In this document: one piece after another, positions 1 to 61,292 of the stretch
Layout of the letters: each line of letters begins with the position of its first letter
Position numbering within the stretch: the stretch's first letter is position 1
DNA from: a virus
DNA: 64,000 nt
IMG/VR virus record: IMGVR_UViG_3300013132_006127
Direction: 5' to 3' (one strand)
Made by a program: the position numbers and the translations under genes
Notes under the pieces: generated by a model
The model's input: only the letters and a program-made list of their open reading frames with translations
The model's database searches: none
Told to the model about the DNA's origin: nothing

Positions 1-3000
1 ATTAGTGCTACAAAGGTTAGAGATGCACTATTCAAAGGAGATGATGCTTTACTTCAAGAGTATCTAGACCCAAGCATTGCTTCTATCTTAATGGGTAATA
101 GAACACAGCTTCGTAATCGAAGTATGATGGTTCCTATGCTTTTGGAAAAAATAAAAGAAGTAGTAGAAGTAGAAAAAGCTAATTCTAATGCGGAAGTGCA
201 GAGATTATTGGAGTCAGCTCCCGGAGGTCCATACAAGAATGTTAGCGCTAAACTCAGAGAAAATGCTCCAGAGGTGGCGGAGCAGGTAAGGCAAATCAGG
301 TCTCAAAGAGATATGATGGCTCGCGGAGCTTTTGGATATAGAGCATACAATGTTATTCAAGCTTTATCTTCTCAATATCCTGAAATGTATGCTTTAGATC
401 CCAATAGGACAGCATCCGTATCCGCAGCAGCCCAGGATATAGATAGAGATATAATGATGGGGCAAGTTACGGAAAGTATGAGAGATTCTTTCCCGTCCAT
501 AGGTTCCGCTGAGACACTTTCTCCAATTCAAGAATCAATATTAGCTAGAGTTCAAAAAGAAACAGCTTCTAGAGGATCTGGATTATTACCAGCTTCTAAT
601 CAAGAAGTTCTAAAAGCTCTAGGGAATAGTGTTATTCCTAACGAGGATAGATTTGGTAAATTTGCTGGTAGATCGTTGTATGATCATCTTAAACTAGGAA
701 AGAAAGTAAAAACTAATCTTCCTTATTGGTTTAGCGACTATAAGACATTCATGAGAAGACCCGGCGAAATTACTGGTCTTACAGAAGAAGACGTATCCAC
801 ATATGCGGCTACTAGAGACTATGTTATAGATTTATTTAATAAACAAAAGAGTGGATCACAACAATCATTATTAGAAAGCACAGCTCAACAAATAGCCCAA
901 ACACAAATGTTAGCTATTGTTGGCCTTAGAGGTAAAAATGGTTTACAAGGCCCATTGACTTGGAACTTGGGTAATAACACAGCAGGAGAACCGGTCTCGG
1001 TATCTGCTACAATTATGGAAAGAGTGTTACCAGCTAAGTATAAAGCTGTAGCTGATTATATTAGTGAGCAAACCGGCAGTATAGTTCAGACAGCTGCTGG
1101 AATGATGGGAGAACCAGGATCATTAAAAAGTCTAGATCTTAAAAAGAGAGAAGTGCTTAATCAAGGAAATATAGAGGGTGGTATTTTTGAACAATTATTA
1201 GCTACTCTAGGAGCAGATGTGCTAGACGATGCTGTTAGAACACGAGCTATAGACTTTCCAAGTGGAATAGGAGAAGTAGCTGGTAAAGTTTTTGGTATAG
1301 ATGCCAATATACCAACAGAAGCTAAGAGAACGATTGACTCTACATCTAGAGCTAAGGCTATGGAGGAATTTCAAAGATACTTTAGAGGAGTTTATGGAGT
1401 ACCAGAACCGGAAGGGGATCTGGTACAACAGTTTGCTAAAGGTGGAAAAGTAGATGATTTATTAGTAAAATATAAAGACATTATTAAAAGTATAATGCCG
1501 GCTGAGTATATTGCTGATGATGGATTTTTAGTCGGTACAAATGTTGATATTAATAGAAATAATTCTATGTTTCTAAAAGCCTTAAAATTTATGATTCCTA
1601 ATGCTAATTTTGGATATACCAAAGGTACAAATTACTCAGTTTTGATAAATTCTTTGCGTAAAAATAAAAGTAAATTCACAGAATCAGAATATTCAGAGTT
1701 AGAAAAATTTGCTATAGAAAAGCTTAGTCAAACCAAAAATTCAATTACTCTCGGTCCTGGCGCCGAGAGTCTTTTACCGCATGAAGCTTTCCATACTATT
1801 CAGGGATTTTTAGCTTTAAATCATCCTCAAATCTTTGACAATCTACTACAACAGTCTTTAGCTAATAAAGATAGATACTTAGAAATATATACTAAATCTA
1901 AACTTAGTAAAAGTTTATTAGGAACATATCAGCCTGAAAAAATGTTTACTGATCCAAAAACAGGTAGTTCTTCTTTTAGAGGATTAACTACGATATTACC
2001 AGAAAAATATAAATCATCAGAAACAATAAAATCTTTAGATAAAGAAATATCATCTACATTAGGAGCTAATGAGATAATACCTTCTTTATTAGACATGATT
2101 GTTTTAGAAAAAAATACAGCAGCACAAAAATTACTTTCTGATATATTTTATTCATCAGGATTAAATGCTAATTTCGCTAGTACCATGCCACAAGGTTATT
2201 TCTGGGGAGGTAAAGTTGACCCTCTTGCTAAGAAGTATGGATTATCACAATCAGAATTTGAAGAACAGAAAAAAATAGCTAAATTTATGGGATTAAGCGA
2301 TAAAGATTTTGAGGAAAAGCTTAGACTGTTCGCTTCTCAAAAGAAACGCGTTAAAGGAGCTAAATTTGCCGCTTTAGATGCCGTGGCAGATTCTTCTGTG
2401 GCCAATCAAAGAGTTACAGCAGAACAACAAGCGTTATCTGAATTCTTACAAGCCACTAAATTTGCTGATGGAGGCACCGCTACTTTAGACAAGCCCTCTA
2501 AAAATTATGGTAAGATAAGCATCACTGAAGATGGAAATACTATTAGTGCAGGGTATCTTAAGAGTAATGATGATAGATCTGGATATGTCAATGCATATAA
2601 AATGAGAGATTATCTATATTACGTTGGTTTATCCAAAGCTACTAGTGGTTATGGGCCAAGATTATATGATGTTGTAATGGAAGCAGCTACTGAAAAAGGA
2701 GCTATGTTAACTTCAGATAGAAGTAGCGTTAGTGGCGATGCCAAAAGAGTATGGGAATATTATTTTAAAAATAGAGGAGATGTTAAAAAAACACCATTAA
2801 AACCAGATGATTGGACAAGAAATCAAGCAGATATTGATCCTAAACTATATGGAAGAGAAGAAACATGGCCCCCAGCCAATGATCCAGCATGGATATTACA
2901 AAGCGGTTATAGCAAATCTCCTTCTTTAATCAATGATCCAAGCGCTGTTATAAAAACAAACAGAAAACAAGATAGTAGAGCCATGGCTCTGCAATACTTT

Positions 3001-6000
3001 CAGAGAGCTGCCATGGGTGGTTCGATTAGAAGATTTGCAAATGGAGGCTCACCAGAAGATACTGTTCCAGCATTATTAACCCCGGGTGAGTTTGTTATCA
3101 ATAAGAAAGCTGCTCAAAGTATAGGATACGGTAAGCTTAACAGACTAAATCAAGCAGACAAATTACAAGGATATAATAAAGGTGGTCCTGTAGGAGGAAT
3201 ACAAAGATTTAATGTTGGTGGCAATGTTGCTTCTGAAGCTCAATTAAACGAGATTATAGCAGCTACATGGGAAGTCTTTCAAAAGATGCCAGAAGGTATT
3301 AAAAATATTATAGAGAAGTCCCTAGACTCCGCTTCTATATCTTTAAATACAGGTGATACTTTTGACGATATAAATTTAAAACTTAGACAACAACTAGTAT
3401 TTGCTCAAAAAAATATTGATAATTTAGGACCAGAAGTAGTAGAAGGAATTAGAAAAATTTTAGGAGCCGGAATTCGTAAGTTAGACGTTATAGAGTTAGA
3501 CACTATACGTTCTAGCTCAAGTTATAAAGGTCCGGGTAAAGAATATTATGAAGACGTTGAAAAAGCAAGAGCCGGTAGAAAAGTTTTCGAGTCAGGAGCC
3601 TCTGATGCTAAAGACGTAATGCAAGCTATGGCTAGGAGTGTAGGAGGTGTAGGAAGCGAAATATATCCAAAACCAGTCGTTAAACCAGAAGATTATTATA
3701 GTAGATTAGATTATAGCGATATTGGTCCATCCAGAGGGGTTAATGATAGAGGACAATTATACGCTAAAGCATTAGCTGGCGAAGACCCAATAAAAGTAAA
3801 TGCTCTAATTGAAAAGCTTAGAAAAGAAATGGAGGATGCGGCTAGAGCCGCTGGTATAGCTATCAGTAAATGGGGCAAGAGCGAATCTTGGGCAGCGTGG
3901 GATATTGGTAAACAATTGCATATGGAAAAAAATCCAAGAGAAAGCAGCGATAGATATCGTTTAGCTAATCCTTTAAATGATGCACAGCTTCAAAAAGAGA
4001 TAGTACAAAGACATTTAGCTTGGGAGGCTACTGGTGGCAGAAACGCTACTACGGGAGAAAGATTATCTTCTGCTGATCTTAAAGATTTGGGTGCTCGCAT
4101 TATGGAGCAAATAGAAGCCACTAAAGCCCAAACAGATGCCACCAAAGCCCAAACAGATGCAAATACTCAAACAACATTTCCTTTTATGGCTCCTCCAACA
4201 CCTTCTGGTCCTACAGGTCCGGGTGGTCAGAGAACATTTGCTTTTATGTCGGGTTCTGGTGCTCCTAATCCTTACTCAGCAACTTTACCATCTGGTATTG
4301 ATTATAATCCTGTTAGTAGAAGGATAAGAAGAAATACTAGAGAAAACGACCCCAATATACAAGAAAGATATCAAAGATTCTCTTCGTCTGTATTTAATAG
4401 ATCTATTGAGCAATTATCAACTAGAGCTAATATATTTGGTGGAGCTTTAGCTACAGCTATAGAAACAACATCAAGATTTGCTGGATCTACGACAGTAGCA
4501 GGAAAAACATTAAGTGGATTAGCTTTTTCTGTGGGTTCCGTAACAGGAAGTTTCTACCAAGCTGCTCAAGCTATAAGAGCTATTGGTAATTTTGCAGATT
4601 CTAGATTCGGACAGAGGATTCTTGGTCAATTTGCACAAAGTATAAATACAGTTAGCTTAAACAGATTTTTTAATCAGCAGATTAGAGGTATTTTTGGATC
4701 ATCTACAGTTGGAGGAATAGCAACAGCTTTTGGAGCCGGAACTGCGGCGGCTGTAGCCCTTACACAGACATTTATAGATTATAGTAATGCTCTTAAAGAA
4801 AGTAGAATAGAAGAAGCTCAAAAACAGCAAGAGAGAGCATTAACCAAGTCAGCAGAAGCTTTAGAAAAATATTCCAAGGTTCAAGATAGAGCAACTCTTG
4901 AACTAGCCAATACTTTTGCGACATCAGCTGGCATTGCAGCTATTAATGAAGCTAATGCTAGAAGTGCTGGAGATAGACGCTTTGGTATGGCAACAGGCAC
5001 TTCTTTGGGTGCCGGAGCCATAGCTGGTGGCGCAATAGGTACTTTTATTGCTCCCGGATTAGGAACAGCTATAGGGGCAGCTATAGGTGGAACAGTAGCA
5101 GCGGCTATTGCTCAATCGCTCGGTGCAGATAGAACATCTGGAACAACAGCCGAGGAAAGCTCATTGCTGCTTGGTAGAAGCAGAAGCTCTATATTAGAAG
5201 TTTTTAATCAAAGATTTACAACCGGCGAAACTAGCGAAGATATTATGAGAAGGCCGGAGTGGAATGCTCAAAGACAAGTTTTGGCTAGATCAAATGCTGA
5301 GGTGGAAGCAATTATCAGGGGCATTCAGTCTGATGCAACACTGACTGAGGATGTTAAGAAAGCAAGAATAGAAGAGGCTTTACAGATAGAAGCATCAGCA
5401 CAGTTAAGGCAACAAGAGCAGATATGGCTAAGACAAAAAGGATTAATAGATCTAGATAATGCTACAAAAGCTTATACCAGAAGTTTGAAAAATATGTTTG
5501 CAAATATGGATGAAGCTATCAATAGAAGTTCTGTAGCTCTAGAAAACTTTAACACTTCTGTAGAACTAGCCGAAGCCTCGGTTAAAGGTCAAGCTAGAAT
5601 AGGTGTTTTTAAGAGTGAAACATCTAATATTATCAGAAATCCCAGAGCTTCGACGAATGAAGAGAGAGCACAAGCTGCTAGTGTTGCCGGTTCTTTCTTT
5701 GGTTCAGAAAGTGGTACAATTAGAGAATTAATTAATATTGGACCAAAAATAGAATCTGCTGTGTTAGCATCTATACAAGCAGCACAAACGTTGCCCGGAT
5801 CAACAACGGATGAGGCAATAGCTGCTGCTATCAGAAAAAGCGTTAGAGCAGAACTCACGGAGTCGTCATTACCTCAAGATTTAAGTGATAAGCTTGGTCA
5901 ACAAATAGCCATAGAATTAGAAAAAAGAAGAAAGAGTGGAGATGACAAGGTAGATTTTAGAGATCTAGAAGAAGCTATTCCACAATTAAAAGATTCTATA

Positions 6001-9000
6001 GACGCTCTCAAGGGAGCACAAGATATTGCCATTAAGGCTTTGGAAGACTATGCTCAAAAAGTTGGTATTCTAGTTGATAAGACCAATACTTCAGTAGAAC
6101 TTTTAGTACAAGCCGGCGATTTACTAAGAAAAGCTAGTGAGATTAGATTCAATAGCGCCTCACAATTAAGCAGAACTTTTGGTTCCAGTATTGATGTAAA
6201 TGCTATACAAAGTTTTAGAGACACAACTATTCGTAACCAGACAGGGGGACCAGCATCGCCTGAAGGTATATTAGACAATATTAATAGATTAGAAAATAGA
6301 AGAGCATTTCAACAAAACCAATTACAATCAGCCCAAGACAGAGGAAGGTCAGGAGCTAGAGATGTATTAGGTTTTACTGATCAATTATCTAGAACCACAA
6401 GATCCTTAAGAGATAATCAAAAAGCATTAGAAGATCTAGCGGCCAATAGCGAACAAGCATCCGCAGCATTAGAAAAGATATCAGAGGTTCAAGCAAAAAC
6501 TCAAGCTGGACAAAATATAATAGAAAGATACTTAACGTCAACAAGAGAAGATAATTTTAAACTATCTTCTGCTTTTGAGAGACTAGATAATAATATGAGG
6601 GGTATGGTTAATGATCCTTTCGCTTCAAGAAATGTGTTTGAGGCAATGAGAGATAGCGATAATCCAGTTTTGGCTGCTGATCAAGCTATAGCTCAGGATA
6701 GAAGAGATACTCTCGAAGCATTTAATATGCTGGCTCCTTTCTTAGGAGATACAAGAGAGCAGAATACAATTAAGGCTAATGTTTTAGAGACTATGCTACA
6801 AGAGGCTGGCATAGGAATGACACCTATGTTTAATGAGGTTATTAAGTCTCTTAGAAATCCAGAAAATAATTCGGAGATGTCCCAATTAGTAGAGCAATAT
6901 AAAGAAGGAATAAAGATTCAGTCTAAGGCCAATGAGTTGCTCGCTGAATTGAACACAAATTTTGCTCAAAATCTTAAACAAAGTTCAGAAGAAGCATTTA
7001 AAAACGCCATAACAGATACTCTGGTTAAATTTGAAGAAGCCCAGGTATCTCATCTGCAAAAGATAGAAGAGATACTATCTAAACAGACCCCAGCCGCTGG
7101 TCTTTCTAGTGGTGGTGTGGTTTATAGAAATATCGGTGGCTCGATATTCCAGCCAAAAGGAACAGATACTGTTCCTGCTATGTTGACTCCTGGAGAATTT
7201 GTTGTCAATAAATCAGCAACACAAAAATATGGATCAGTATTAAATGCGATTAATACTAATACTTATGCTAGAGGAGGAAAGGTAAAATATTATGCTACTG
7301 GCGGTTATGTATCTAGTTTATTGAAAAATGAAACTGGTTTTACCTCTGCTAGTTCAGAAGCAGAAACAAAGAATTTTGGTTTATCGAGTGATTTTTATCA
7401 GAATCCACCAGATGCTGCTGGTAAAAGAAACAAAAATTTTAGTAAAAATAGACACTTTGATCCTGGACAGTTAACAGAAACTTTGAGAGACGCAAATACT
7501 GTAAGACTTATGAAATTAACAAATAATCCTAGTATAATACCATTAGGATTAAATGCTGTTGGTCCTGATGCATTCCCGTTAGGTGCTACATCTTCAGAAA
7601 ACTATAAAACATTTGAAAACTTTATTAATGATGGAGTTTCTGCAACTTCTGTTGGTATTGGTTTTTATCCAAGATATAAGATGGCTCTAAATGGTACTGT
7701 TTTAGCAGATAACGCACCAAACAATGTACAGGTTTCTCAGTTAGGACCAGCTATACCAGAAGCCCTATTCAAAAATATAGGAACTATTAAAGAAAGATTC
7801 TTAGAAGAGAGAGAAGCAGCGGAAGCCTTAAGATTAAAACCAGTGATAGATAGCGTTCTTCAGAATTTAGATCTTAACACATATCAAATATATAATCAAC
7901 AAAAATATACAGAAGCCTTGTCTAGTCAATTACCCATATGGTACAAGGAAGGTAAATCCGTTATCGATTTTGGTGGAGGTATAGATAATGCTATATTTAC
8001 TAAGGCTAAAGCTGATCTTAATAAGTTAGAATATACCAAAGGTTTTGGTGAAAAAGCTCTATTCTTGGTTCCTGGCACCAGTGATCCAGTAGTTAATCAA
8101 AAAATATCTGCTTTGAATAGATCTGGTATGCCAGTTGGATTTGATGTAAATAATCTGCAAATAACAACAGGGGATCCAGGATTACCTATTTATGGAGCGG
8201 GCGGCTTTACTGTCGATATAGCTAGTAGATCCTCAAGATCTGGACAAAAAAATCTATCAGTATTGCCACCATCTAAAATATATAGAACATCTAGAGATAG
8301 TATTAGTGAAAATTTAGAATTTTTACAACTAATTAGATCGGACTTCGAAGATTTAGAGAAGGATAGTTTTGGTCCAGAGACTATCTATTCCAATCAATAT
8401 GCTCTTTATCAGAATGCTCTTAGTGATATTTCTAAAGGTTTAATAGAAAAAGCTAAATTTAATAGAGATATTCTTGATCAAGACGAAGTAGCCAATTTAT
8501 CATCTGTAAAAGGAGATAGAATAGATCTCAGTAAGCTAACAGATCTTTATGTGTGGAGTAAGAGGTCTTTTGATGCTTCTAAAATCAAAACTAATCCTAG
8601 GTTTAAAAATGCCACAAATATTGGTTCTGATTTTCCAATTAAAAACATAGATACTAATAATATAGAAAATTTTGTTTGGTCTTTATCTGACAGTATCACC
8701 GGATCTGACTTTCTTAATAGTGTAAAACCATTTTTAGATCCTAAACAATATTTAATAAATGAAACATTTTCTGAAACATTTGATGCTCCATGGGCTATAG
8801 ATAAAAAAATCAATGTAGAGTTCCCATATAAGACCTTGAAAAAACTACCTATTTTTGATTTTAATAATGGTGGTTCTATTAGCAAAGAATACAATGGCTT
8901 TGGTTTATATGCCGATACATTTAATATGTTAGGTGATAATAAAACTATAAATCCATTCAAACTAGCCACTACAGATTATAATAACAATAAATTATTATTA

Positions 9001-12000
9001 ACTAAAACAGATGCATCATCTATATTATCTAATAAAATTAAACAATGGATCAATAGTAACGGTGGTCAAGTTCCGACAAAAGCTGTAGACTTACAATTAT
9101 TGTCCAAATTAGTACAGTTAGAACCTAGTGATTTGGATATTATTCCAGAAGATAACGATCTATCTAGAGAAACGGCGGCCGCTAGAAGAGATATTTTTGG
9201 AGCAAAAGGGAGCTTGTACCAACAATTAGCAGGCATTGGCGTTCTATATAGAGAAGGTGGCGAAGCTAATTTCGGTAATTTAGATCTAGATCCATCTATG
9301 GTTAATGATTTTAAAGATAAGGTGGATTTAAATAAAGCTTTTGCCACCAACGCTACCAATCAAAGGTTTCCTGCTTATGCAAATGGTCTACTAAATATAA
9401 AGAATGAATTAGTGAAGTCTAAAGAATCATTATTAGAAGATTTTATTAATCAATCTAGTATATCTAATTTGAATTTATCTGATTTAGCACCATGGGTTAA
9501 AAACTTACAAGATAGTAGAATAGGGGATTTATTTAGCGGAGGTCCGGAGGTCCCAGACAATCTAAGAAAGGTTTATTTGCAAACTTTGGGCTGGGATAAA
9601 ACACAAAAAACAGCAGACCTAATGAATGCCACCGAAGCTAAATATCCCGGAGCTTTCCAAGAATTGATGAGTCTGTTGCAGTTGGGTTTCTATGTTAATG
9701 GGGGTAAAACAGCAGCAGCATCAAATACACTATCGAGCGAGTTTAATGATCTGCAAAAAAGTTTCTTTGGCACGGAAGATTTAGATAAATTATCAGTTTT
9801 TGAAGATTCGAGAGTGGCTGGCAAGAGAGGCAAACAGTGGTGGAAAGCTGGAGGTCCAGATTGGGCAGGTTTTGCTAGATATAATCTTTCTATTATTTCC
9901 CGTAAAGGTATGATAGAAAATATTCAAAACATTCTTAATAAAGCTAGTCAGGCTTCATTTAATCAGCAAGACGCTAATGATCTAGCAGAAGATATACAGT
10001 CCTTATCCATAGGAGCAACGGGATCTGCTACTATTGGAGCAGAAACACCAGCTAATAATTTAACAGATTTATTAACTAAAGCTCTAGATACCACGAAAAT
10101 TTATACAGAAGGTTACAGACTGGATATAGCTGATGCTATTCAGAAATTTAATATGCCTGGAGGTGTTAAAGATCCTAATCTTGATAGAATCAAGTCTATG
10201 ATAGATCCATCGAGTGATCTATTGACATATTTAGCTTTTAAAGATGCTATTTTGTCACAGCCTATTAGTTCTGTTCAGGGTATCAAAGTACAAGGAGATG
10301 ATAGAGATATTAAAGCTCCTAGATTGTCAAACTATGCATTAAATACAGAAAGTATTAATGGAGTTAATCCTTGGTCAATATATGAAACATTTTTAGATAA
10401 TGCTGCATTTACCAACGTTTCTAATGCTTTTAATGAATTAGTCGATATGATAGGAGCAGCCGGGAAATTTACATTACAAGATCCAAGAACTATATATCAA
10501 GGACCGGTTAATACTTTTGATAGTAAATTATACGAAAACCCTGATCATAGATCGGCTGATCCTATTAAAGGTACCGGAGCTTATACAACATCTTATAAAG
10601 CTTTAGCTGGTACAATATATGCTACATTATTTGAAAAAGCTAAAAAAGAAGAAGCTCTCAGAGATAGCACAACAGAAGATTCAAATGTCATTTATAGATC
10701 AAAGGGTGGCTCCGTAGGATATTACAATAATGGTGGATCAATTATTAATTTTCAACCTAGGGGAACAGATACTATCCCAGCTATGTTGACTCCGGGTGAA
10801 TTTGTCATCAATAGACAGGCTACTCAAAAACATCTACCTTTATTACAAGCTATTAATAGTCAAAATTATCAAACCGGAGGAGTTGTCAAATATCTACAAA
10901 ACGGATCGCAAAACCCTGTATCGTCTGATTCTCCACAAGACTGGATCCGTCAATTTGTCAATGATATTAGATCAGCCTCTGATGAAGATATATTAGGTTA
11001 TGGTAATTCGAAACAAACAATGTCTTTGGATAGATTCAAACAATTTGTATGGGATTTAACAGCTGGCCGTTGGGCTGGTTTTGGAGGAGACATTCCTAGA
11101 GGTAGAGTCGTAAGAAAAGCTCAACCGGTGTCAGCCGATGTTTCTTTTGCTAGACCAAATCAAACATCTGTAAGCTTCAAGAGAGATGTGGCTGAAACAA
11201 CATGGACTCCATCATCTAGATCCATGGCTTCTCAGAGGAATAGACAAGAAAACCCATATATGCCACCAGCAGAAGATCCAACTGCGTATTCTCCATCTTC
11301 TAGAGCACAAGCTAGTAGAAGAGCTAGAGAATCATATAAACCTCAATATTCCGCTGAATCTTATATTAGCGATAGTGATGCTATTAATGCCTCGCAACAA
11401 TTTGAAAAAGAGTACAAAGAAAGAAAAGAGAGGATTCTTAAAAGAGAATTAATGCTAGAAGAAGGTCCAACTAGCAGTATTAATCTATCTACACCAACTA
11501 TGACATTTGAAAAATGGGATAGAAAAAATAGAACAGACGGTAGAATAGTAGCATATGACGCAGCTAGACAATTCTTGGCTATACTAAAGATCGCTGGTAC
11601 AGACATAATGGAACCCGAAAAGAAAACGGCGGGGGTTACTGCTTTCCCGATAAACCTATTGGGTCCATCGTCGCAAGAATCTGTATTTTCTTTACTATCT
11701 AATAGAGAATTATCAGTAGATGATCCTTATCCCTATCAAAAAATAGGTATTAATGAGGCATTAAATAGATTAGAGAAAGAATACGGATCAGATTTTGTTA
11801 AACAATATAGAAGCAGAGACAGGATTTCTAAAATAAGTACTAATGCTGGTTTGGTATACGATCCAAACCAAGGATATATCGCTTCTAAATTATCTGACTT
11901 TTTATTATCAAATGTACTAGAAAAACAAAAGAAGTTTGCTGTACCAACAGCAGAAGCAGTACCGGTGCCGGATGCAGAGGTAGCATATACTTCTACAAAA

Positions 12001-15000
12001 GCTGCTGAACCTGTATTTCCACAAAAACCAGAGAATAGATCCGTAACTAATGTTTCGGATGAAATATCTGTATTAGGTCAAGAGTTTAGAAAATGGATCG
12101 ATGTTTCTGGTAAATATAATACAATTGCAAAATTAATGTCCTTTGTTAATCAAAGTAGAGATGTTAAATTAAACAAAAATAATAATAAAAATATAGTCGT
12201 GCCTATAGATAAGCTAAGTTCAGGAGATAAAAATTATCTTAATAGAGTTAAGTCCTCTAGCAGTAGTATTCCTGCTCCTAAAACCTCGTCCACAAATAAA
12301 CCAGAAAGTCAACAAGTATTTAATAATGTAGATAGATTATGGTATGGAGGAAGATTATGGGATCTTAATAATGATGGAATAGAATCAGAAAAAATAGTTG
12401 GTAGAATTGATCGTATATTGGATGCCGAAAGAATTATGATAGATACCAATAGTGTTCCTGGAGGAAGTCTTATTCTCAGAAGAGAATTTATGAACCAAGA
12501 AGACTTAGACACTATTAAGGCTTGGGAAAATCAAAGAAGAATAACCGCAGTAAACAAACAAACCGGCGGGATGATTTATGCTTCTAATGGTCAATTGATT
12601 AATTTCCAGCCGAGAGGTACAGATACCGTACCAGCGATGCTTACTCCTGGTGAGTTTGTTGTAAATAGACAAGCTACACAAAAGAATTTACCATTATTAC
12701 AATCTATCAATAACTCCACAAGTAATAGTAAATCTTATATGAGAGGAGGAATAATTTATGCTGCTGATGGAGCATATGTAAGAGATAAGGCTGGTGGTCC
12801 AAGATCAATGCTTTTGTCACCAAGAGAAGCAAAAAAATTAAATGTTCCTTATCAAATAGGTAGAGGTTATGATGCTCAGTATTTTGACAGAAACGATAGA
12901 GGTATTGGTCCTATTGAATGGAGAATGATAGAAAAAGCTGATGAAGAATATGTTAAGAGTCAAGGTAGAAGTGGAATAAATTATTTTGATCATCCAGAAC
13001 TCAAAAGACAGAAAGCTTTTGCTACCGTTCCAGGAATGGTCGCATCTGGATTAGGGAAACTAGGAGAGTTAATAAATAATGCTATAGAATGGGAACCTTA
13101 CGGAAATGGATATAAGCCTGTTAAGATTTTCTCAAGCATGTTAGATATGATTAGTAATGTTGCTGTCGGAACAACAAGAGCTGCTGGTGCTTTAGCTGGT
13201 TTAACTGTGGGTTCTGTAGTTTCAATACCCGACATGCTTCTTTCTGGGACGGACTACCTCTTTCCTGGATCAAAAGATGCATTTACTAGAGCTATAGGTT
13301 TTGATACTTCAGAATTTGTTAATGTTATGAATGAGGGGGCGGCATTAGAGTTAGAAAGAGCGGTAATGAATTACGCTTCTTTATATAATAATGTATTAGG
13401 AGCTGTAGACTCTACTTTTGGTTCCAATTTAGAATCTACAGATTCTTGGGCTCAAGCAATTACCGGAAATCAAAAAAAACTATGGGAAGAAAAAATGGCT
13501 TTGGCTATTAGATCAGGTATGAAAGGAGGAACCAGTGGACGTGATCATGAACTTATGTTAGGAGCATTAGATGGTATAAGCGTAGCAGCTAGCACCATAG
13601 GTGGGGCGGCATTGGCGAGCAAGATAGGAAATATAAAGCTCGCTAAAGGTTTAACTACAATGATACCTGAAGAAACAGGAAGTGATGTTTTACGTGTATT
13701 GGCTGAAATCAATAATAGATTGGTTCAGGGACAAGGATATATTATGCAAGCGTCAGAGATCGCAGGAACGGTTGCTTTACCAAAAGATATAAAAGACGCT
13801 ATAGAGGCAAGTAAGCTTCAACCAGATACAGAAGATCCGCAAGAAAGAGCATCAAGAAGAGTTGCTGCTGTAAATTTTGCTAGAGGAGGTTTGGTTTCCG
13901 AGGTTTCTGGTTTATATCAAAGTAGATTAACGACTCAAAAAAATCTTTCACAAGCTAATGATCAGTGGTTTGTTGTACCATTAAAAGCTGGTAGAGGTAG
14001 AGGTTCACAGGCTGGTGATACGAGTAAGATTTTTGATGCTAATGGTAATATTTTACCATCAAATGAACTTTTGACATACGATATGAATAAATTAGCTACA
14101 ATATATGGTAATGATTCTAAGTTAGCCCAAAAAGCAGCATCGACAAAATATCCATGGTTTGATGCCAAACAACACAGACTCGTAATGGGTCAAGGAATAT
14201 ACAGAAACCAGAAAACATCTTTTAGTAAGCAAGATCCAGCATTAAAATTAATTGATGAATTAGCCTATGAATATAAAGCTATGCCAGATATTTTTGAAAT
14301 TAAGAATAAAGAAGCATATACCGATGAAAATATTGATTCGTCTAAATTTTTGAGTAGCTTGAAAGATTCAAAGGGTAATTATGTAAAGCAATCGGTAGAA
14401 CCAGCCGCTCAAATGCTTAAAGATAGAAGTAATTTTTTAACCACTCTATTTTTTAATCTAGAAGAAGCTTTAGATATAGTAGATGCATACATCAATAAAG
14501 AGGGAAGAGATAGTACTTTAAGATCAGCCTTTGCTGGCGAAGACCCAGACAATATTCTAAGTTTCCAAAAGACCGCGGTAGGATCAGAGATAAATAATAT
14601 AGATAATATTCTTAAAGAAGCAGAGATAAACCAGTATGCTCAAAAAGTAAAAAATAAATATAACCAAAGTAGAATATTAAATTTTGGAGAAACAAAGAAC
14701 TTAAAGTCTATCGTAGATTACTTTACTAGAAATAAAAAGCCAGAACCAAAAACACAGCCAACCGGTCCAGTTAATATGGCGGTGGGTGGTTTTGTGCCCA
14801 GTTATTATTCATCAGGGTCATTAGTAAATTTTGCTCCAAAAGGTACCGATACTGTACCAGCAATGTTAACTCCTGGCGAATTTGTAATTAATAAACGAGC
14901 CACACAAAAGAACCTACCTCTTCTAAAACAAATTAATAGTCAGAACTATCAAAGAGGAGGAGTTGTAAAATACTACCAGCAAGGAACCCAAACGCCTGTT

Positions 15001-15432
15001 CAACAAACTGGTGGATTGGGTAGTATGTATTCTTTATCATTAGATGATAAATCAATATCTTTAATTAGAGAATTTACATCAAGATTTAGTGAATTTAGTA
15101 ATAAATTGGCTAACTTAGCTATTCCATCTTTGAAGTTGGATGAAACAACATTAGCCTCATTGAATAACTTTACTCAAAGATTTGATAACTTTACCAAAGA
15201 GTTATTAAAGCTAAATATTCCGCCAGTTATAACTATAACCGGTAAACACGATGTAAATGTAAATATTAATGGCGCTAGTGTATTTAGTAATATGGATAAA
15301 TATGTCTCTAACATGATTAAAAACGAGATAAACAATGCTTTTGCCCAACTAGCAAGGGAAACGGATGGCGCTATCAGTATGAACTACAACCCGTCCGCAT
15401 ACAGCAATCAAAACAGTCAAAATATGGCTTAA
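1..15432 (+). CDS. Giant tape-measure-like polyprotein with embedded enzyme/effector domains (5'-truncated, >5140 aa)
   Basis: Frame is open from base 1 (ISATKVRDALFKGD...), so ATG 91 is probably internal. Ala/Gly-rich helical core with glycine zipper GAIAGGAIGTFIAPGLGTAIGAAIGG (~4981-5124). Five copies of DT[VI]PA[ML]LTPGEFV[IV]N flanked by F/YxxGG, as in the lambda gpH C-terminus. Ends with a TMP-like HDVNVNING strand followed by a helix. Confidence 0.88.
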   Translation: MSATKVRDALFKGDDALLQEYLDPSIASILMGNRTQLRNRSMMVPMLLEKIKEVVEVEKANSNAEVQRLLESAPGGPYKNVSAKLRENAPEVAEQVRQIRSQRDMMARGAFGYRAYNVIQALSSQYPEMYALDPNRTASVSAAAQDIDRDIMMGQVTESMRDSFPSIGSAETLSPIQESILARVQKETASRGSGLLPASNQEVLKALGNSVIPNEDRFGKFAGRSLYDHLKLGKKVKTNLPYWFSDYKTFMRRPGEITGLTEEDVSTYAATRDYVIDLFNKQKSGSQQSLLESTAQQIAQTQMLAIVGLRGKNGLQGPLTWNLGNNTAGEPVSVSATIMERVLPAKYKAVADYISEQTGSIVQTAAGMMGEPGSLKSLDLKKREVLNQGNIEGGIFEQLLATLGADVLDDAVRTRAIDFPSGIGEVAGKVFGIDANIPTEAKRTIDSTSRAKAMEEFQRYFRGVYGVPEPEGDLVQQFAKGGKVDDLLVKYKDIIKSIMPAEYIADDGFLVGTNVDINRNNSMFLKALKFMIPNANFGYTKGTNYSVLINSLRKNKSKFTESEYSELEKFAIEKLSQTKNSITLGPGAESLLPHEAFHTIQGFLALNHPQIFDNLLQQSLANKDRYLEIYTKSKLSKSLLGTYQPEKMFTDPKTGSSSFRGLTTILPEKYKSSETIKSLDKEISSTLGANEIIPSLLDMIVLEKNTAAQKLLSDIFYSSGLNANFASTMPQGYFWGGKVDPLAKKYGLSQSEFEEQKKIAKFMGLSDKDFEEKLRLFASQKKRVKGAKFAALDAVADSSVANQRVTAEQQALSEFLQATKFADGGTATLDKPSKNYGKISITEDGNTISAGYLKSNDDRSGYVNAYKMRDYLYYVGLSKATSGYGPRLYDVVMEAATEKGAMLTSDRSSVSGDAKRVWEYYFKNRGDVKKTPLKPDDWTRNQADIDPKLYGREETWPPANDPAWILQSGYSKSPSLINDPSAVIKTNRKQDSRAMALQYFQRAAMGGSIRRFANGGSPEDTVPALLTPGEFVINKKAAQSIGYGKLNRLNQADKLQGYNKGGPVGGIQRFNVGGNVASEAQLNEIIAATWEVFQKMPEGIKNIIEKSLDSASISLNTGDTFDDINLKLRQQLVFAQKNIDNLGPEVVEGIRKILGAGIRKLDVIELDTIRSSSSYKGPGKEYYEDVEKARAGRKVFESGASDAKDVMQAMARSVGGVGSEIYPKPVVKPEDYYSRLDYSDIGPSRGVNDRGQLYAKALAGEDPIKVNALIEKLRKEMEDAARAAGIAISKWGKSESWAAWDIGKQLHMEKNPRESSDRYRLANPLNDAQLQKEIVQRHLAWEATGGRNATTGERLSSADLKDLGARIMEQIEATKAQTDATKAQTDANTQTTFPFMAPPTPSGPTGPGGQRTFAFMSGSGAPNPYSATLPSGIDYNPVSRRIRRNTRENDPNIQERYQRFSSSVFNRSIEQLSTRANIFGGALATAIETTSRFAGSTTVAGKTLSGLAFSVGSVTGSFYQAAQAIRAIGNFADSRFGQRILGQFAQSINTVSLNRFFNQQIRGIFGSSTVGGIATAFGAGTAAAVALTQTFIDYSNALKESRIEEAQKQQERALTKSAEALEKYSKVQDRATLELANTFATSAGIAAINEANARSAGDRRFGMATGTSLGAGAIAGGAIGTFIAPGLGTAIGAAIGGTVAAAIAQSLGADRTSGTTAEESSLLLGRSRSSILEVFNQRFTTGETSEDIMRRPEWNAQRQVLARSNAEVEAIIRGIQSDATLTEDVKKARIEEALQIEASAQLRQQEQIWLRQKGLIDLDNATKAYTRSLKNMFANMDEAINRSSVALENFNTSVELAEASVKGQARIGVFKSETSNIIRNPRASTNEERAQAASVAGSFFGSESGTIRELINIGPKIESAVLASIQAAQTLPGSTTDEAIAAAIRKSVRAELTESSLPQDLSDKLGQQIAIELEKRRKSGDDKVDFRDLEEAIPQLKDSIDALKGAQDIAIKALEDYAQKVGILVDKTNTSVELLVQAGDLLRKASEIRFNSASQLSRTFGSSIDVNAIQSFRDTTIRNQTGGPASPEGILDNINRLENRRAFQQNQLQSAQDRGRSGARDVLGFTDQLSRTTRSLRDNQKALEDLAANSEQASAALEKISEVQAKTQAGQNIIERYLTSTREDNFKLSSAFERLDNNMRGMVNDPFASRNVFEAMRDSDNPVLAADQAIAQDRRDTLEAFNMLAPFLGDTREQNTIKANVLETMLQEAGIGMTPMFNEVIKSLRNPENNSEMSQLVEQYKEGIKIQSKANELLAELNTNFAQNLKQSSEEAFKNAITDTLVKFEEAQVSHLQKIEEILSKQTPAAGLSSGGVVYRNIGGSIFQPKGTDTVPAMLTPGEFVVNKSATQKYGSVLNAINTNTYARGGKVKYYATGGYVSSLLKNETGFTSASSEAETKNFGLSSDFYQNPPDAAGKRNKNFSKNRHFDPGQLTETLRDANTVRLMKLTNNPSIIPLGLNAVGPDAFPLGATSSENYKTFENFINDGVSATSVGIGFYPRYKMALNGTVLADNAPNNVQVSQLGPAIPEALFKNIGTIKERFLEEREAAEALRLKPVIDSVLQNLDLNTYQIYNQQKYTEALSSQLPIWYKEGKSVIDFGGGIDNAIFTKAKADLNKLEYTKGFGEKALFLVPGTSDPVVNQKISALNRSGMPVGFDVNNLQITTGDPGLPIYGAGGFTVDIASRSSRSGQKNLSVLPPSKIYRTSRDSISENLEFLQLIRSDFEDLEKDSFGPETIYSNQYALYQNALSDISKGLIEKAKFNRDILDQDEVANLSSVKGDRIDLSKLTDLYVWSKRSFDASKIKTNPRFKNATNIGSDFPIKNIDTNNIENFVWSLSDSITGSDFLNSVKPFLDPKQYLINETFSETFDAPWAIDKKINVEFPYKTLKKLPIFDFNNGGSISKEYNGFGLYADTFNMLGDNKTINPFKLATTDYNNNKLLLTKTDASSILSNKIKQWINSNGGQVPTKAVDLQLLSKLVQLEPSDLDIIPEDNDLSRETAAARRDIFGAKGSLYQQLAGIGVLYREGGEANFGNLDLDPSMVNDFKDKVDLNKAFATNATNQRFPAYANGLLNIKNELVKSKESLLEDFINQSSISNLNLSDLAPWVKNLQDSRIGDLFSGGPEVPDNLRKVYLQTLGWDKTQKTADLMNATEAKYPGAFQELMSLLQLGFYVNGGKTAAASNTLSSEFNDLQKSFFGTEDLDKLSVFEDSRVAGKRGKQWWKAGGPDWAGFARYNLSIISRKGMIENIQNILNKASQASFNQQDANDLAEDIQSLSIGATGSATIGAETPANNLTDLLTKALDTTKIYTEGYRLDIADAIQKFNMPGGVKDPNLDRIKSMIDPSSDLLTYLAFKDAILSQPISSVQGIKVQGDDRDIKAPRLSNYALNTESINGVNPWSIYETFLDNAAFTNVSNAFNELVDMIGAAGKFTLQDPRTIYQGPVNTFDSKLYENPDHRSADPIKGTGAYTTSYKALAGTIYATLFEKAKKEEALRDSTTEDSNVIYRSKGGSVGYYNNGGSIINFQPRGTDTIPAMLTPGEFVINRQATQKHLPLLQAINSQNYQTGGVVKYLQNGSQNPVSSDSPQDWIRQFVNDIRSASDEDILGYGNSKQTMSLDRFKQFVWDLTAGRWAGFGGDIPRGRVVRKAQPVSADVSFARPNQTSVSFKRDVAETTWTPSSRSMASQRNRQENPYMPPAEDPTAYSPSSRAQASRRARESYKPQYSAESYISDSDAINASQQFEKEYKERKERILKRELMLEEGPTSSINLSTPTMTFEKWDRKNRTDGRIVAYDAARQFLAILKIAGTDIMEPEKKTAGVTAFPINLLGPSSQESVFSLLSNRELSVDDPYPYQKIGINEALNRLEKEYGSDFVKQYRSRDRISKISTNAGLVYDPNQGYIASKLSDFLLSNVLEKQKKFAVPTAEAVPVPDAEVAYTSTKAAEPVFPQKPENRSVTNVSDEISVLGQEFRKWIDVSGKYNTIAKLMSFVNQSRDVKLNKNNNKNIVVPIDKLSSGDKNYLNRVKSSSSSIPAPKTSSTNKPESQQVFNNVDRLWYGGRLWDLNNDGIESEKIVGRIDRILDAERIMIDTNSVPGGSLILRREFMNQEDLDTIKAWENQRRITAVNKQTGGMIYASNGQLINFQPRGTDTVPAMLTPGEFVVNRQATQKNLPLLQSINNSTSNSKSYMRGGIIYAADGAYVRDKAGGPRSMLLSPREAKKLNVPYQIGRGYDAQYFDRNDRGIGPIEWRMIEKADEEYVKSQGRSGINYFDHPELKRQKAFATVPGMVASGLGKLGELINNAIEWEPYGNGYKPVKIFSSMLDMISNVAVGTTRAAGALAGLTVGSVVSIPDMLLSGTDYLFPGSKDAFTRAIGFDTSEFVNVMNEGAALELERAVMNYASLYNNVLGAVDSTFGSNLESTDSWAQAITGNQKKLWEEKMALAIRSGMKGGTSGRDHELMLGALDGISVAASTIGGAALASKIGNIKLAKGLTTMIPEETGSDVLRVLAEINNRLVQGQGYIMQASEIAGTVALPKDIKDAIEASKLQPDTEDPQERASRRVAAVNFARGGLVSEVSGLYQSRLTTQKNLSQANDQWFVVPLKAGRGRGSQAGDTSKIFDANGNILPSNELLTYDMNKLATIYGNDSKLAQKAASTKYPWFDAKQHRLVMGQGIYRNQKTSFSKQDPALKLIDELAYEYKAMPDIFEIKNKEAYTDENIDSSKFLSSLKDSKGNYVKQSVEPAAQMLKDRSNFLTTLFFNLEEALDIVDAYINKEGRDSTLRSAFAGEDPDNILSFQKTAVGSEINNIDNILKEAEINQYAQKVKNKYNQSRILNFGETKNLKSIVDYFTRNKKPEPKTQPTGPVNMAVGGFVPSYYSSGSLVNFAPKGTDTVPAMLTPGEFVINKRATQKNLPLLKQINSQNYQRGGVVKYYQQGTQTPVQQTGGLGSMYSLSLDDKSISLIREFTSRFSEFSNKLANLAIPSLKLDETTLASLNNFTQRFDNFTKELLKLNIPPVITITGKHDVNVNINGASVFSNMDKYVSNMIKNEINNAFAQLARETDGAISMNYNPSAYSNQNSQNMA
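3007..3222 (+). repeat. TMP GG/GEFV cassette, copy 1
   Basis: AAMGG..FANGGSPEDTVPALLTPGEFVINKKAA..YNKGG..FNVGG. Confidence 0.9.
4117..4158 (+). repeat. 21-bp tandem duplication (ATKAQTD x2)
   Basis: gccactaaagcccaaacagat / gccaccaaagcccaaacagat, one mismatch. Confidence 0.85.
7102..7305 (+). repeat. TMP GG/GEFV cassette, copy 2
   Basis: LSSGG..RNIGG..PKGTDTVPAMLTPGEFVVNKSAT..YARGG..YATGG. Confidence 0.9.
10693..10908 (+). repeat. TMP GG/GEFV cassette, copy 3
   Basis: YRSKGG..YNNGG..PRGTDTIPAMLTPGEFVINRQAT..YQTGG..LQNGS. Confidence 0.9.
12556..12774 (+). repeat. TMP GG/GEFV cassette, copy 4
   Basis: KQTGG..ASNGQ..PRGTDTVPAMLTPGEFVVNRQAT..YMRGG..AADGA. Confidence 0.9.
14776..14988 (+). repeat. 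TMP GG/GEFV cassette, copy 5 (canonical C-terminal position)
   Basis: MAVGG..YSSGS..PKGTDTVPAMLTPGEFVINKRAT..YQRGG..YQQGT, about 150 aa before the stop. Confidence 0.9.
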
Positions 15433-15445
15433 AGGGTAATTTATT

Positions 15446-18400
15446 ATGGCAGAAATTCAACCAAATCTATTCTGGAGTAGCGGCAATAATTCTTTGATAA
15501 TTGGTAATTCTGGTTCTTATACAAATCCTATAGACGCTAGTGTTGTATTGGGGGCCACACAAATAGCCTCATCAGGACTATACCCATTAAAAATTAGCCT
15601 TAATCAAGGAAACTTCTTCATTCTTACTAAAGATGGTAAAGTGGCCATCAATACTCCAAGTTTTCCTGTATATGAATCATCCCCAAATTTTCATATGGTT
15701 GGAAGATGTGCTGTTTTTGAAGGCAACTGCGGAGCAGGAGGAGTAGCACTAACGTTGTATAACAATCCAGATGTGGTACCACAAGTTGGAAGCATAGCTG
15801 GATCATTAAACCTATCCGCAAGAAATAATAATCGTAATGTTGTAAATTTCGCACAAGTACAATCCAAAATACTTAATCCGCTCAAAGGACAAACAAGAGG
15901 TCAGTTTGTTGTTAATGTTGAGTCATCTGGCGTCTCAAAGTCTATACTGAAACTAGATGATAGTGTTAATCAAATAGGTATTAATAATGTTGATAATGCT
16001 ACATACACAAGCGTTTTAGGTTCAGGTAATTCTTTATCTTATGTAAATAATTCTAAAGTTATTGGAGATGGAAATTTTGCTAATCGTAGTAATAATTTGT
16101 ATTTACTAGGATCAGATAATAGTATTGATTTAATTAAAAATAGTGTTGTATATGTATTAGGTTACGATGTTGGGGAAAGTCCACTTCTAGGAATGCCGTC
16201 TGATTTGAATTGGGGTCCAAATGATGACTTAGCACAAGGTGATATAGTAAAGATAGAAAATAATGCTCTTTTAAACGGATATTATGTCGCTAATACTGGT
16301 ATATGGACAAAGATAGATGATACAGTTGCTGTTGCGTATATAGGGACTTCTAATATTCTAATTGGTAGTGAAAATGCTCTATCTGGAAATAATGTTATTG
16401 CTATAGGTAATTCTTCTTCTGTTAGTGGCAATAATATTTTTATGTTTGGTAGTTATAATAATGTTAAAACACAAAAACTAACAGGTATTTTATCTTCTGG
16501 TAGTAGCGATATAGAAAACTCTTTTATACTTGGATCATATAACTCTATAGATGCTAGTGGGACTATTGTTTTTGGTAGTCATAATGCTTCTAGCGGCGTG
16601 TCGGCTATTGTTCTAAATGGTTCTCATAATACAATAGCCAGCGGATCCATAAGCAGTGTGGTATTAGGTGACAATAATATCGTAAACTCTGTTTCTGGAA
16701 TAGTTTTAGGTTCTAATAATTTAGGATCTATAGATTTAACATCTTTATTAGGATTTAATAACAATATAGTTTTATCCAGTGGTAATATTCTAGGATCATA
16801 CAATAGGGTTAGTGGCGTCAACAATAATATTATTGGTAATTCACTTAATGTAACCGGCTCACAAATATCTGCTATAGGATCTAATTTAAGTGCTAGTGGG
16901 AACAATAATTTAATTTTTGGTAACCAGCAAAATTTATTATCTAACTCAGGTATTTTTATTGGTAATCATGGATCTATAAGCGGTAATAATAATATAGATA
17001 TAGGTTCACATATACTTTCTAGCGGTTCTCATTCTATTATTACTGGTAATAATAATAAAACAGAAGATGTACTAAAAATTAATTTGTATGGTCATAATAA
17101 TATACTCAGATCTGGCACATATATTGATGCTAATGTCATTGGACAAAACAATATTATAAGTTCTGGTATACAAAATATCAATGTAGTAGGAGATAATAAT
17201 AAGCTAGATAATATATTTGATTTAACAGTACAGCCAGTAGAAGCTTTTTATGACTCTGAATATTCTGTTCTTACTGATTTAACTAATAGTAATCTATTCA
17301 GAGTTGGAGACAGGGTATCATTAAGAGATTCAGACGAGATCTTTGTTATAGAAAATAAGATTCCACCATCCAATGATCAATCCTCACAATTCACTATAGA
17401 GTTTCAAAATCCTATCCCTAGTAGTTTGTTGAATCAAACACTATATATTAAATCACAAACATTACAAGATGAAATTACATATAATTATAGTAATCCAAAT
17501 ACTATTATAGGTAATACTAATACTATTATTGGTATGTCTGGACTTATTATTGGTAATCTAAATAAAGCTTCTGGCAATATGATTACTAATATATCTTCTT
17601 CATCTAATATTACTGGTAATAATGTTATTAATATCGGCTCCAAACTAGTTTCTAGTAGTGGTAACAACATTATTAATATAGGACACAATTTTAAAGGAAT
17701 TACTAATGATTTAACTAATATTGGTTTTAATAATACTAATGAATATCAATTTAGTTCTATATTAGGGTCAGATAATTTTGTTATCAACGGAGATGTTATT
17801 GGCAGCGGGAATAGAGTCTATGATAGAAATACGTCTATCGTAGGAGATAGTAATACTATTATTGGTTATGGCAAATTTTTTAATACTAATGATAGTTTAA
17901 TTTTTTCTTCAGGTTCTTATGATTCTTCATTAGATGCTATAGTTCTTAGTCAAAACGCTGCTAGATTCTATCCTACCGACGGAAGAGTAGTTAATTCACA
18001 GAAATTAATTGTTCAACTTGCTATAAGCGGCACATATCTTCCTGCTTTTTCTGGTTACGCCACCTTTGTTAGAGGCGACCAGATGTATTTTGCAGAGAAG
18101 GGCCCTAATTACGGAACAACACTCAACCCATTATTTGATACATTTAATCCGGTACCACTACAAAATTTTGTAAAGGCCCTATTCCCAACCTCTGCTATAC
18201 CCGACAATATAGACGCTTTTGTTTATCCTATTACTGACGAGAATAAAGTGGTAATTGGCGATGAAAACTTTATTACAGAAGGTCGTTATTTAGGTGTTTT
18301 TGGTAATAATAATAAATACGGTACTGATGTTAATAGTAATAGATTTGAAATAGGTAGTACTACTTCATACTCTGGTATTGTTATCGGACATAATAATACT

Positions 18401-30681: not shown

Positions 30682-31683
30682 ATGACATATATTATTAATA
30701 AAGATTGCATCATACTACCAGCAAAACCAGAAAGATCACCTACTCCTAGTTTCACTAGTAAGCCCACTAGCACACCAACTCTTACTCCATCAAATACAGC
30801 AACACCGCCAGTAACACCAACGGCTACTAATACTAGAACTCCTAGTCAAACATCAACAGTAAGCGCAACTCCAACAAAAACCGCCACACAAACACCCTCC
30901 AACACCCCTACTGTTACAAGAACTCCTACAGTAACTCCAACAAATTTTTGTTACTACCAGGATAGTTTGCCTGAGACTTGTTGTGGGGAATTTTTCTTAT
31001 ATGCTAGAAGCGGATTATGGTATAATACTAATGTTTATTTTAATCAAAATGATAGGTTGTATATCACAGCAAAAGGTTGTGCTTCCTACAATACCTCTTT
31101 AGCTCCTTCAACTAATTTTGGACCAGAAGGAACAGATACCGGGCTATTAACAGTCGAAGGAAGAATCAATGATAGCGGCACTTATAGTTCAATTTTAAAA
31201 ATTGGAAAATTATATGATAGTTACGCTCCTATAAAAGGATTATTAGAATTAAGAATATATGATATTAATTATAATGATAATGGTGGAGGTTTTTGTGTTT
31301 GTGTAAAAAAAGACCCAGGAGGAGATTGTTTAGCTAATAATTGTGTTCCTCCGGAAGCGTCTCCAACGCCAACGCCCACACAGACCCGAACACCATCTAA
31401 AACTCCGGGAACAACCCGAACTCCGACCCCAACACAAACACCGTCCAGCACCCCCTGCTTACATCCTATGGTAATATGCATAGGGTTATTTGATGACTTT
31501 ATGATAAATAATGGCATTATAGTAGAATTACAAGTAGAAAAAAATCCATTATGCTGTTGCCAAATACAATATTCGTTAGATAATACTAATATATGGACTC
31601 AAATGCCACAACAATATATAGATTGCGATCCTTCTTTTTACTACACTGTTAATACTGTTTGCTTCGGAGATATTATACCATGA
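30682..31683 (+). CDS. TP-stalk protein with LecA/PA-IL-like lectin domain
   Basis: WYNTNVYFNQNDRLYITAKG...VEGRIN...LKIG...GLLELRIYDINYNDNGGGFCVCV (~30991-31305) follows the PA-IL-like jelly-roll pattern W.xT.....D.L.I.A.G...GRI...G.L.L...D..Y.DN.G.F.V. Confidence 0.65.
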   Translation: MTYIINKDCIILPAKPERSPTPSFTSKPTSTPTLTPSNTATPPVTPTATNTRTPSQTSTVSATPTKTATQTPSNTPTVTRTPTVTPTNFCYYQDSLPETCCGEFFLYARSGLWYNTNVYFNQNDRLYITAKGCASYNTSLAPSTNFGPEGTDTGLLTVEGRINDSGTYSSILKIGKLYDSYAPIKGLLELRIYDINYNDNGGGFCVCVKKDPGGDCLANNCVPPEASPTPTPTQTRTPSKTPGTTRTPTPTQTPSSTPCLHPMVICIGLFDDFMINNGIIVELQVEKNPLCCCQIQYSLDNTNIWTQMPQQYIDCDPSFYYTVNTVCFGDIIP

Positions 31684-57010: not shown

Positions 57011-57474
57011 ATATTTATGATTTTACGTGTGACTTTGTTAGAGTCGATCACAATGAATATAGATGCAATACGTGCGGAATACTTATATCTTATAGTGGAT
57101 TAGAGAAACCCATAATGATATGTCCTAAAAAAATGAGTTTAAATAATCCAGAAAATTATGGTATTAGAGTCTCTGAAGTCGAGGTACAAGATAAAAAAGT
57201 AGAAACACCACTACAACCTCCTTCTCTAATGGAAAAAGTTCTTAACTTTACTAAATCTGCCACTAAACACGCTTTGGCTGGTAGTCCCAAATGTACAGAT
57301 GAACAAATACATTATAGATACAATATATGTACTCAGTGTGAGTTTTTCAAAAATAATACATGCACTAAATGTGGATGTAATCTAGTTAGAGAAAAAATCT
57401 ATATGAATAAACTAGCTTGGGCAGATCAATCTTGTCCTGTTGGGAAATGGGGGCCGGTAGACCCAACTAGCTAA
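57007..57474 (+). CDS. Cys-rich metal-binding protein (DUF6171-like C-terminus)
   Basis: RYNICTQCEFFKNNTCTKCGCNL..K.AWADQSCPVGKW plus an N-terminal CNTCG. Confidence 0.65.
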   Translation: MNIYDFTCDFVRVDHNEYRCNTCGILISYSGLEKPIMICPKKMSLNNPENYGIRVSEVEVQDKKVETPLQPPSLMEKVLNFTKSATKHALAGSPKCTDEQIHYRYNICTQCEFFKNNTCTKCGCNLVREKIYMNKLAWADQSCPVGKWGPVDPTS

Positions 57475-58178: not shown

Positions 58179-58179
58179 T

Positions 58180-58509: not shown

Positions 58510-58511
58510 AG

Positions 58512-61291: not shown

Positions 61292-61292
61292 A

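Follow-up and report, generated by a model that had tools for sequence, protein, structure and literature searches.

What kind of protein is a phage chain of several thousand residues that is punctuated again and again by pairs of glycines, and what do these pairs do? The question is raised by a 64,000-nt stretch of the IMG/VR virus record IMGVR_UViG_3300013132_006127 (the whole stretch is called the window here), whose first 15,432 nt hold the 3′ part of a giant gene. A preliminary description, made from the letters of this DNA, had read the gene as encoding a tape measure protein (TMP) built as a GG-punctuated polyprotein, in which the motifs act as processing or linker signals between enzymes delivered at infection. 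We examined this proposal by profile searches, comparison of relatives and structure models. A modular, cargo-carrying tape measure with conserved joints is well supported by the results. That the protein is also processed by a protease is plausible, with about even chances, by analogy with the TMPs of lambda and T5.

Frame 1 of positions 1–15432 is a single open reading frame on the + strand, open at the 5′ edge of the window. The protein collection contains P0002, an identical full-length product of 6543 residues; the window therefore begins at P0002 residue 1401, and window residue n is P0002 residue n+1400. The first 1400 residues, encoded upstream of the window, include the region matched by TIGR01760 (P0002 151–458, 94.4 bits against a cut-off of 28.8). 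This N-terminal TMP model is the sole NCBIfam match of the protein, and the sole Pfam match among five overlapping pieces of it is SHD1. A precomputed PF10145 match is present in P0002 and in most of its relatives. Downstream of the gene, FN3, RCC1 and FGE-sulfatase domains occur in genes matching tail-fibre PHROGs. Because a TMP N-terminus is followed by tail-fibre-like genes, we assign the gene to the tail block of a phage; as judged by its sequence, the protein is a TP901-type phage tail tape measure protein. The identification made in the preliminary description is thus borne out by TIGR01760 and PF10145, in the N-terminus that is missing from the window. Genes upstream of the tape measure in one relative gave no recognisable family and no PHROG match.

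All 19 xxxGG pentamers listed in the preliminary description were found in frame 1 at the nucleotide positions given there. In the window part of the protein, 47 GG dipeptides were observed for 28 expected, 18 [FYW]xxGG for 2.3 expected (about 8-fold) and 10 [FY][AN]xGG for 0.3 expected; none of 2000 shuffles gave counts as high. The list mixes two kinds of element. Fifteen of its 19 motifs fall within five copies of one cassette of about 70 residues (GG-x-V-Y..GTDTVPAMLTPGEFVxN..Y-x-x-GG), and the other four (FAKGG, YFWGG, FADGG and FARGG) stand alone, as mini-joints. Five further [FYW]xxGG sites that were not listed lie inside the segment of about 1130 aa described as unknown (P0002 4131, 4354, 4483, 4631 and 4681). 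Upstream of the window, the first 1400 residues of P0002 hold a sixth cassette and more mini-joints. At the level of the family, the cassette consensus is A-x-GG-x-V-Y-A..G....F-x-P-x-GTDTVPAMLTPGEFVVNR-x-ATQ-x-NLPLL..IN...Y-S-x-GG-x-V-x-Y. The mini-joint consensus across 93 relatives is GG-x-[VI]-Q-[KR]-F-A-x-GG-x-[VA], and there this short form is frequently found in tandem with a period of 9 residues. Stand-alone joints are densest between cassettes 1 and 2 (3.08 per 1000 aa, with 0.49 expected from composition), against 0.09 across the N-terminal TMP region and 0.68 further along the chain. No Pfam family was detected on the cassettes at E≤10, and Tape_meas_lam_C (PF09718) matched nothing in five related phage records.

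Do these motifs mark borders, as the preliminary description had claimed? In an all-against-all comparison of relatives (blocks of at least 150 aa, the pairs not being independent), 41% of the C-ends and 18% of the N-ends of homology blocks lay at most 10 residues from a motif, against 5.4% of random points. Explicit cases were also found, in which a single joint remains where a module is missing. Thus, window residues 483–819 are absent in one relative, the flanks meeting at a single joint, and are represented by unrelated sequence in another. Module order is shuffled between relatives, and the modules at window residues 2443–3553, 3640–4183 and 4262–4920 are bounded by cassettes and private to the closest relatives. 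In an AlphaFold model of P0002 1280–2477, confident domains are parted by minima of the predicted local distance difference test (pLDDT) of 28–45, located exactly at FAKGG, YFWGG, FADGG and the cassette, six motif sites in all. The motifs are therefore module borders. Where it could be followed, through block ends and pLDDT minima, the border claim held, including exact exchange or indels of modules at single joints in homologous TMPs and independent, confidently modelled domains between joints.

Indels placed exactly at joints would also be expected of mere recombination linkers, that is, patches of DNA homology that promote shuffling and have no role in the protein. However, the cassette copies share only 74–77% identity at the DNA level, and about half of the codons differ at identical residues, with 23 residues invariant among the five cassettes of the window and ten among all 91 family cassettes compared. 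Since synonymous codons diverge while the residues stay invariant, selection acts on the peptide and not on the DNA. This codon comparison largely refutes the linker explanation, which we regard as hardly credible. The modules and joints of the window are given in Table 1.

Table 1. Modules, cassettes and mini-joints of the tape measure gene, in window coordinates
Feature	Position (nt)	Strand	Remarks
TMP gene, 3′ part	1..15432	+	5143 codons and stop
Module d, C-terminal 477 aa, mostly helical	1..1431	+	whole module is P0002 1265-1877
Mini-joint FAKGG	1432..1446	+	pLDDT minimum; homology with G001/L009 stops here
Zincin-like HExxH module (predicted)	1447..2196	+	HEAFH at nt 1780-1794, invariant downstream Glu; in 14/92 relatives
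Mini-joint YFWGG	2197..2211	+	stand-alone motif
Small helical module, ~83 aa	2212..2460	+	helices, pLDDT 69-77; 16 relatives
Mini-joint FADGG	2461..2475	+	stand-alone motif
GNAT-like module (predicted)	2476..3015	+	fold match aa 834-975 (nt 2500-2925); motif-A-like SGYGPRLY at nt 2644-2667; 37 relatives
Cassette 2 of the full protein, first in the window	3016..3231	+	core DTVPALLTPGEFVIN
Conserved core module	3232..7101	+	Gly/Ala-rich hydrophobic stretches at nt 4705-4764 and 5005-5127
Cassette 3	7102..7317	+	cassette sequence
Variable module, ~1125 aa	7318..10692	+	only in closest relatives (two at >=60% coverage)
Cassette 4	10693..10917	+	cassette sequence
Variable module with SHD1	10918..12549	+	one significant SHD1, nt 12082-12258
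Cassette 5	12550..12783	+	cassette sequence
Variable module	12784..13875	+	one hydrophobic stretch, aa 4395-4416
Mini-joint FARGG	13876..13890	+	stand-alone motif
Variable module	13891..14769	+	6 relatives
Cassette 6, last	14770..14997	+	cassette sequence
Conserved C-terminal module, ~144 aa, and stop	14998..15432	+	58 relatives

The nature of the inserts was examined at the sequence and fold levels. When the modelled segment following FADGG was compared with known structures, GNATs accounted for more than 40 of the 50 best matches (Z 5.6–7.5), the top three having an rmsd of 2.8–3.2 Å over 83–104 aligned residues, and the module carries an invariant motif-A-like loop, G-Y-G-P-x-L-Y-D. These matches support a GNAT-like fold for the predicted module. 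The HExxH domain, when modelled alone, reached a pLDDT of 86.6 and a predicted template modelling score (pTM) of 0.87, and H-E-x-F-H together with a downstream Glu is invariant in 10 relatives. Its structural matches are to PPEP/M34-type, M48, M13 and thermolysin folds, only at Z≤5, and the Atlas gave as its best match a cluster of viral ATLF domains (TM 0.40/0.55). The zincin matches are weak but consistent in two of three libraries, with isolated peptidase-named rows in the third, and support a zincin-like fold of the predicted domain. Neither module gave a Pfam, NCBIfam or PDB sequence match. Foldseek returned no match at E≤0.001 for the 1198-residue model or for the HExxH domain, and an ESM Atlas feature search with the 1125-aa module gave no usable match. 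Therefore, of the enzyme cargo proposed in the preliminary description, the GNAT-like and zincin-like HExxH modules are retained at the level of predicted folds, whereas the nucleotidyltransferase tail and nuclease found no Pfam, NCBIfam or fold support. The SHD1 'array' was reduced to one significant copy (PF03983, 36.3 bits against a cut-off of 23.7, window aa 4028–4086).

The inserts also follow a rule of composition. Cys is entirely missing from the 6543 residues of P0002, whereas it makes up 1.13% in neighbouring genes, and 80 of 93 relatives are likewise Cys-free, as are lambda gpH, T5 pb2 and P23-45 gp96. Since Cys is absent from the whole protein, the enzyme-like inserts obey the compositional rule of TMPs, which fits with their travelling through the tube as part of one chain. 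Histidine amounts to only 0.3%.

The family to which the protein belongs counts at least 93 giants of 2.9–7.9 kaa, found on jumbo-phage contigs (IMG/VR contigs of at most 248 kb, of which two, of 238 and 244 kb, are complete and have terminal repeats). Cassettes were found in 93 of 93 giants, 1–9 in each, most often four to six and mostly internal, and the family thus departs from the single copy near the C-terminus seen in lambda gpH. The cassette profile was further searched against 1.84 billion representative proteins, yielding 19,134 representatives at E≤0.001, of which 936 reached E≤1e-30. The scores of about 900 representative clusters are too high for one copy, and the best 150 matches have 3–12 matched stretches each. 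Across 220 proteins, the median distance between the end of the last cassette and the C-terminus is 142 residues. In 113 cultured-phage records recovered by tblastn, every cassette match falls in the gene annotated as tape measure, at one place per record. One tape measure from a cultured cyanophage, Nodularia phage vB_NspS-kac65v162 (L019 6310–16248, 3312 aa), carries two tandem cassette cores at aa 915–1029, one third along the protein and not C-terminal. The relative P0006, which resembles a tape measure lacking the N-terminus, was considered as a natural split of the gene and was ruled out, a 100-N scaffold gap (L022 9853–9952) cutting the gene.

TMPs are usually viewed as plain rulers, in which a single cell-wall enzyme at most is embedded. 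One could ask whether the protein is giant only because the tail measures about 1 micrometre, the inserts being length filler with no enzymatic or effector role. Protein length does track cassette number (r 0.59), a tail sheath model matched nothing in the relatives, and long tails are known in comparable phages: P23-45, with its TMP of 5002 aa, has an extremely long tail, that of Nodularia phage 2AV2, another phage of the cassette match list, measures 795 nm (PMC6293099), and a matched relative has a TMP of 3312 aa. However, HExxH with its downstream Glu and the GNAT motif-A-like loop stay invariant across relatives of 30–70% identity, the insert domains are confidently globular in the models, and inserts are swapped and shuffled, not just lengthened. 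A ruler and nothing else is thus very unlikely. A very long tail is rather an additional, simpler reason for the size of the protein, and the source is an uncultured jumbo phage whose tail is probably very long and non-contractile.

What might happen at the joints can be approached through the tape measures whose maturation has been studied. Lambda gpH carries the element at 732–785 (FHFATGG..PAGIVHRGEFVFTKEAT..YATGGYVG), directly after a Gly-rich hydrophobic stretch. The idea that this cassette has been reused is supported, since the window holds five copies and the full protein six. PHROG TMP families match only the cassettes, each copy of them, and mostly near these families' own C-termini. 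During maturation, gpH is cut in a glycine-rich region to give gpH* and gpHC (about residues 690–853), the cut site and the protease being reported as unknown (PMC12617516). Only residues 818–849 of gpHC are seen, bound to gpI (PMC12617516), which would make the cassette the unresolved head of gpHC. By analogy with this contact, the C-terminal module of about 144 aa is likely the tail-tip end of the ruler. Lambda gpH thus resembles the present protein in having the same element after a Gly-rich hydrophobic stretch, a C-terminal module after the element and no Cys. It differs by a single cassette near the C-terminus of 853 aa, compared with six cassettes and mini-joints in 6543 aa here, and the enzyme-like inserts distinguish the window TMP from it.

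T5 pb2 provides the second case. It is cut after R1127, giving pb2* and pb2C (PMC10038345). Its sequence at this point (L017 17122–20781) is FVPR/AEGGMMYPGVSYQMGEHGTEVVTPM, i.e. R1127/AEGGMMYPG..GTEVVTPM, the slash marking the cut. As here, a hydrophobic stretch is followed by sequence resembling the first half of the cassette, and the Gly/Ala-rich hydrophobic stretches of the core resemble those ahead of the cassette in both lambda and T5. If this resemblance is real, T5 is cut two residues before GG. The cut parts a channel-forming from an enzyme-like portion; both stay in the tail and both are ejected. Unlike the present protein, pb2 has a single site, no PGEFV core and no significant profile match.

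The conserved backbone of the giant TMP consists of the N-terminal TP901-type region, the Gly-rich hydrophobic core and the probably tip-binding C-terminal module of about 144 aa. Variable modules, several of them enzyme-like, are spliced into this backbone, every border bearing a full cassette or its short form. From the biology of TMPs, we propose that the Cys-free chain lies extended in the lumen of the tube and leaves it with the C-terminus in front, before the DNA. The hydrophobic core could then help to form an envelope channel, and the GNAT-like and zincin-like inserts between cassettes 1 and 2 may refold and act in the host. By analogy with gpH (cut to gpH* and gpHC) and pb2 (cut to pb2* and pb2C), the joints may be assembly-dependent break or hinge points, for and against which we see about equal chances. 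The argument for cutting is that in both TMPs whose maturation is known, those of lambda and T5, the cut falls at the element or next to it. Were the joints cut, the cut would probably fall immediately ahead of A-x-G-G, as it does in T5, and not behind G-G. Taken as a whole, a modular TMP with joints as break or hinge points is the best explanation available, and we consider it somewhat probable.

Several observations weigh against this proposal. The fold matches of both enzyme-like modules are middling (Z 5–7.5), with no Pfam match. The cassette profile matches gpH 746–785 weakly (E 0.45 against PDB), the equal order of elements being judged by eye, and the likeness of T5 to the first half of the cassette is visual only, the HMM score not being significant. 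No case was found in which the gene is naturally split at a joint. The preliminary description had also suggested looking for a candidate protease in the rest of the genome. Lambda gpK carries a JAB domain, for which reason JAB was tried, together with M23 and C39 as Gly-Gly peptidases; none of these models had a match in the five related records examined, which include two complete ones, in a search that covered these three families in records too divergent for absence to count. The embedded HExxH module cannot be the family-wide processing enzyme, since it is present in only 14 of 92 relatives.

The conserved stretch itself, of about 11–13 residues and with a 9-residue period in tandem, looks like a repeated strand rather than a protease site, and the cassette was modelled at low confidence as a monomer, as expected if it folds only in assembly. 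Both features would suit joints that are never cut and serve as structural staples, the TMP staying one chain. Gly-bounded strands would in that case keep the TMP chains, three or six of them running in parallel, in register with one another, or dock to the tube wall, the hub or chaperones. The negative search for JAB, M23 and C39 agrees with this, as does Thermus phage P23-45, whose gp96, a 5002-residue TMP bearing an RNA polymerase, is full-size in virions (PMC10770324). P23-45 gp96 is, like the present protein, a giant Cys-free TMP and carries a host-acting enzyme, its virion RNA polymerase. However, neither cassette nor mini-joints were found when gp96 was checked for them, so it says nothing about the cassette. 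The cuts in lambda and T5, at or next to the element, also stand against staples, and we consider this alternative credible, but less probable than break or hinge points.

A further version of the break-point proposal goes beyond hinges. The cassette might be a self-contained, assembly-triggered breaking module, in which the invariant Asp and Glu beside Gly-Gly could even be catalytic, and the TMP a true polyprotein. Cutting inside the closed tail tube would then yield ten or more proteins, fired in fixed order before the DNA. This version is rather doubtful.

Other systems share parts of this architecture. Gly-Gly-containing junctions between functional units are also found in adenovirus and ASFV polyproteins, which are cut after Gly-Gly, and in the Tal proteins of lactococcal phages, with their Gly-rich self-cleavage. 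In contrast to adenovirus and ASFV, the only mapped TMP cut, that of T5, lies before GG. Phages and conjugative elements encode polyvalent proteins (Iyer et al. 2017), in which enzyme domains, among them zincin-like peptidase and GNAT, are strung together in shuffled order in one large chain that is delivered with DNA; processing of these proteins by an embedded metallopeptidase was proposed (PMC5512222). The same paper makes no mention of tape measures or of a junction motif (PMC5512222). The present case differs in that the carrier is a TMP, the borders bear a conserved peptide and the peptidase module is restricted to a minority of relatives. None of the Pfam domains of that paper was detected in the window TMP, the two enzyme-like modules being recognised at fold level only.

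Elsewhere in the window, a 2240-aa protein is encoded directly after the TMP (15446–22168), at the position of a hub or tip protein, with no Pfam match and a marginal PHROG match. Very large tail proteins mixing FGE-sulfatase-like, FN3 and RCC1 beta-propeller domains are encoded at 22906–27897, 31659–33224 and 35430–40514, and the same combination occurs downstream of the tape measure in the relative L016. The end of the window (57471–64000, minus strand) is a block of small genes with a G+C content of 27–28%, compared with about 35% in the tail block, and with faint Pfam hints only (Glyco_transf_25, DUF3106).

In the papers searched for tape-measure polyproteins or the lambda C-terminal family, multiplied cassettes are not described. 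The results show one conserved peptide joint multiplied into a large, shuffling family of giant rulers with enzyme-like inserts. The invariant residues of the cassette would give a concrete handle on the maturation of lambda gpH and, if the cassette is a breaking module, the same chemistry would explain the 50-year-old question of how gpH becomes gpH*. The cultured Nodularia phage with internal cassettes makes cleavage testable at the bench. Should the joints serve as cutting sites or as hinges, the tail tube of these phages would be a magazine for protein delivery, and a new route by which counter-defence or takeover factors may reach the host.

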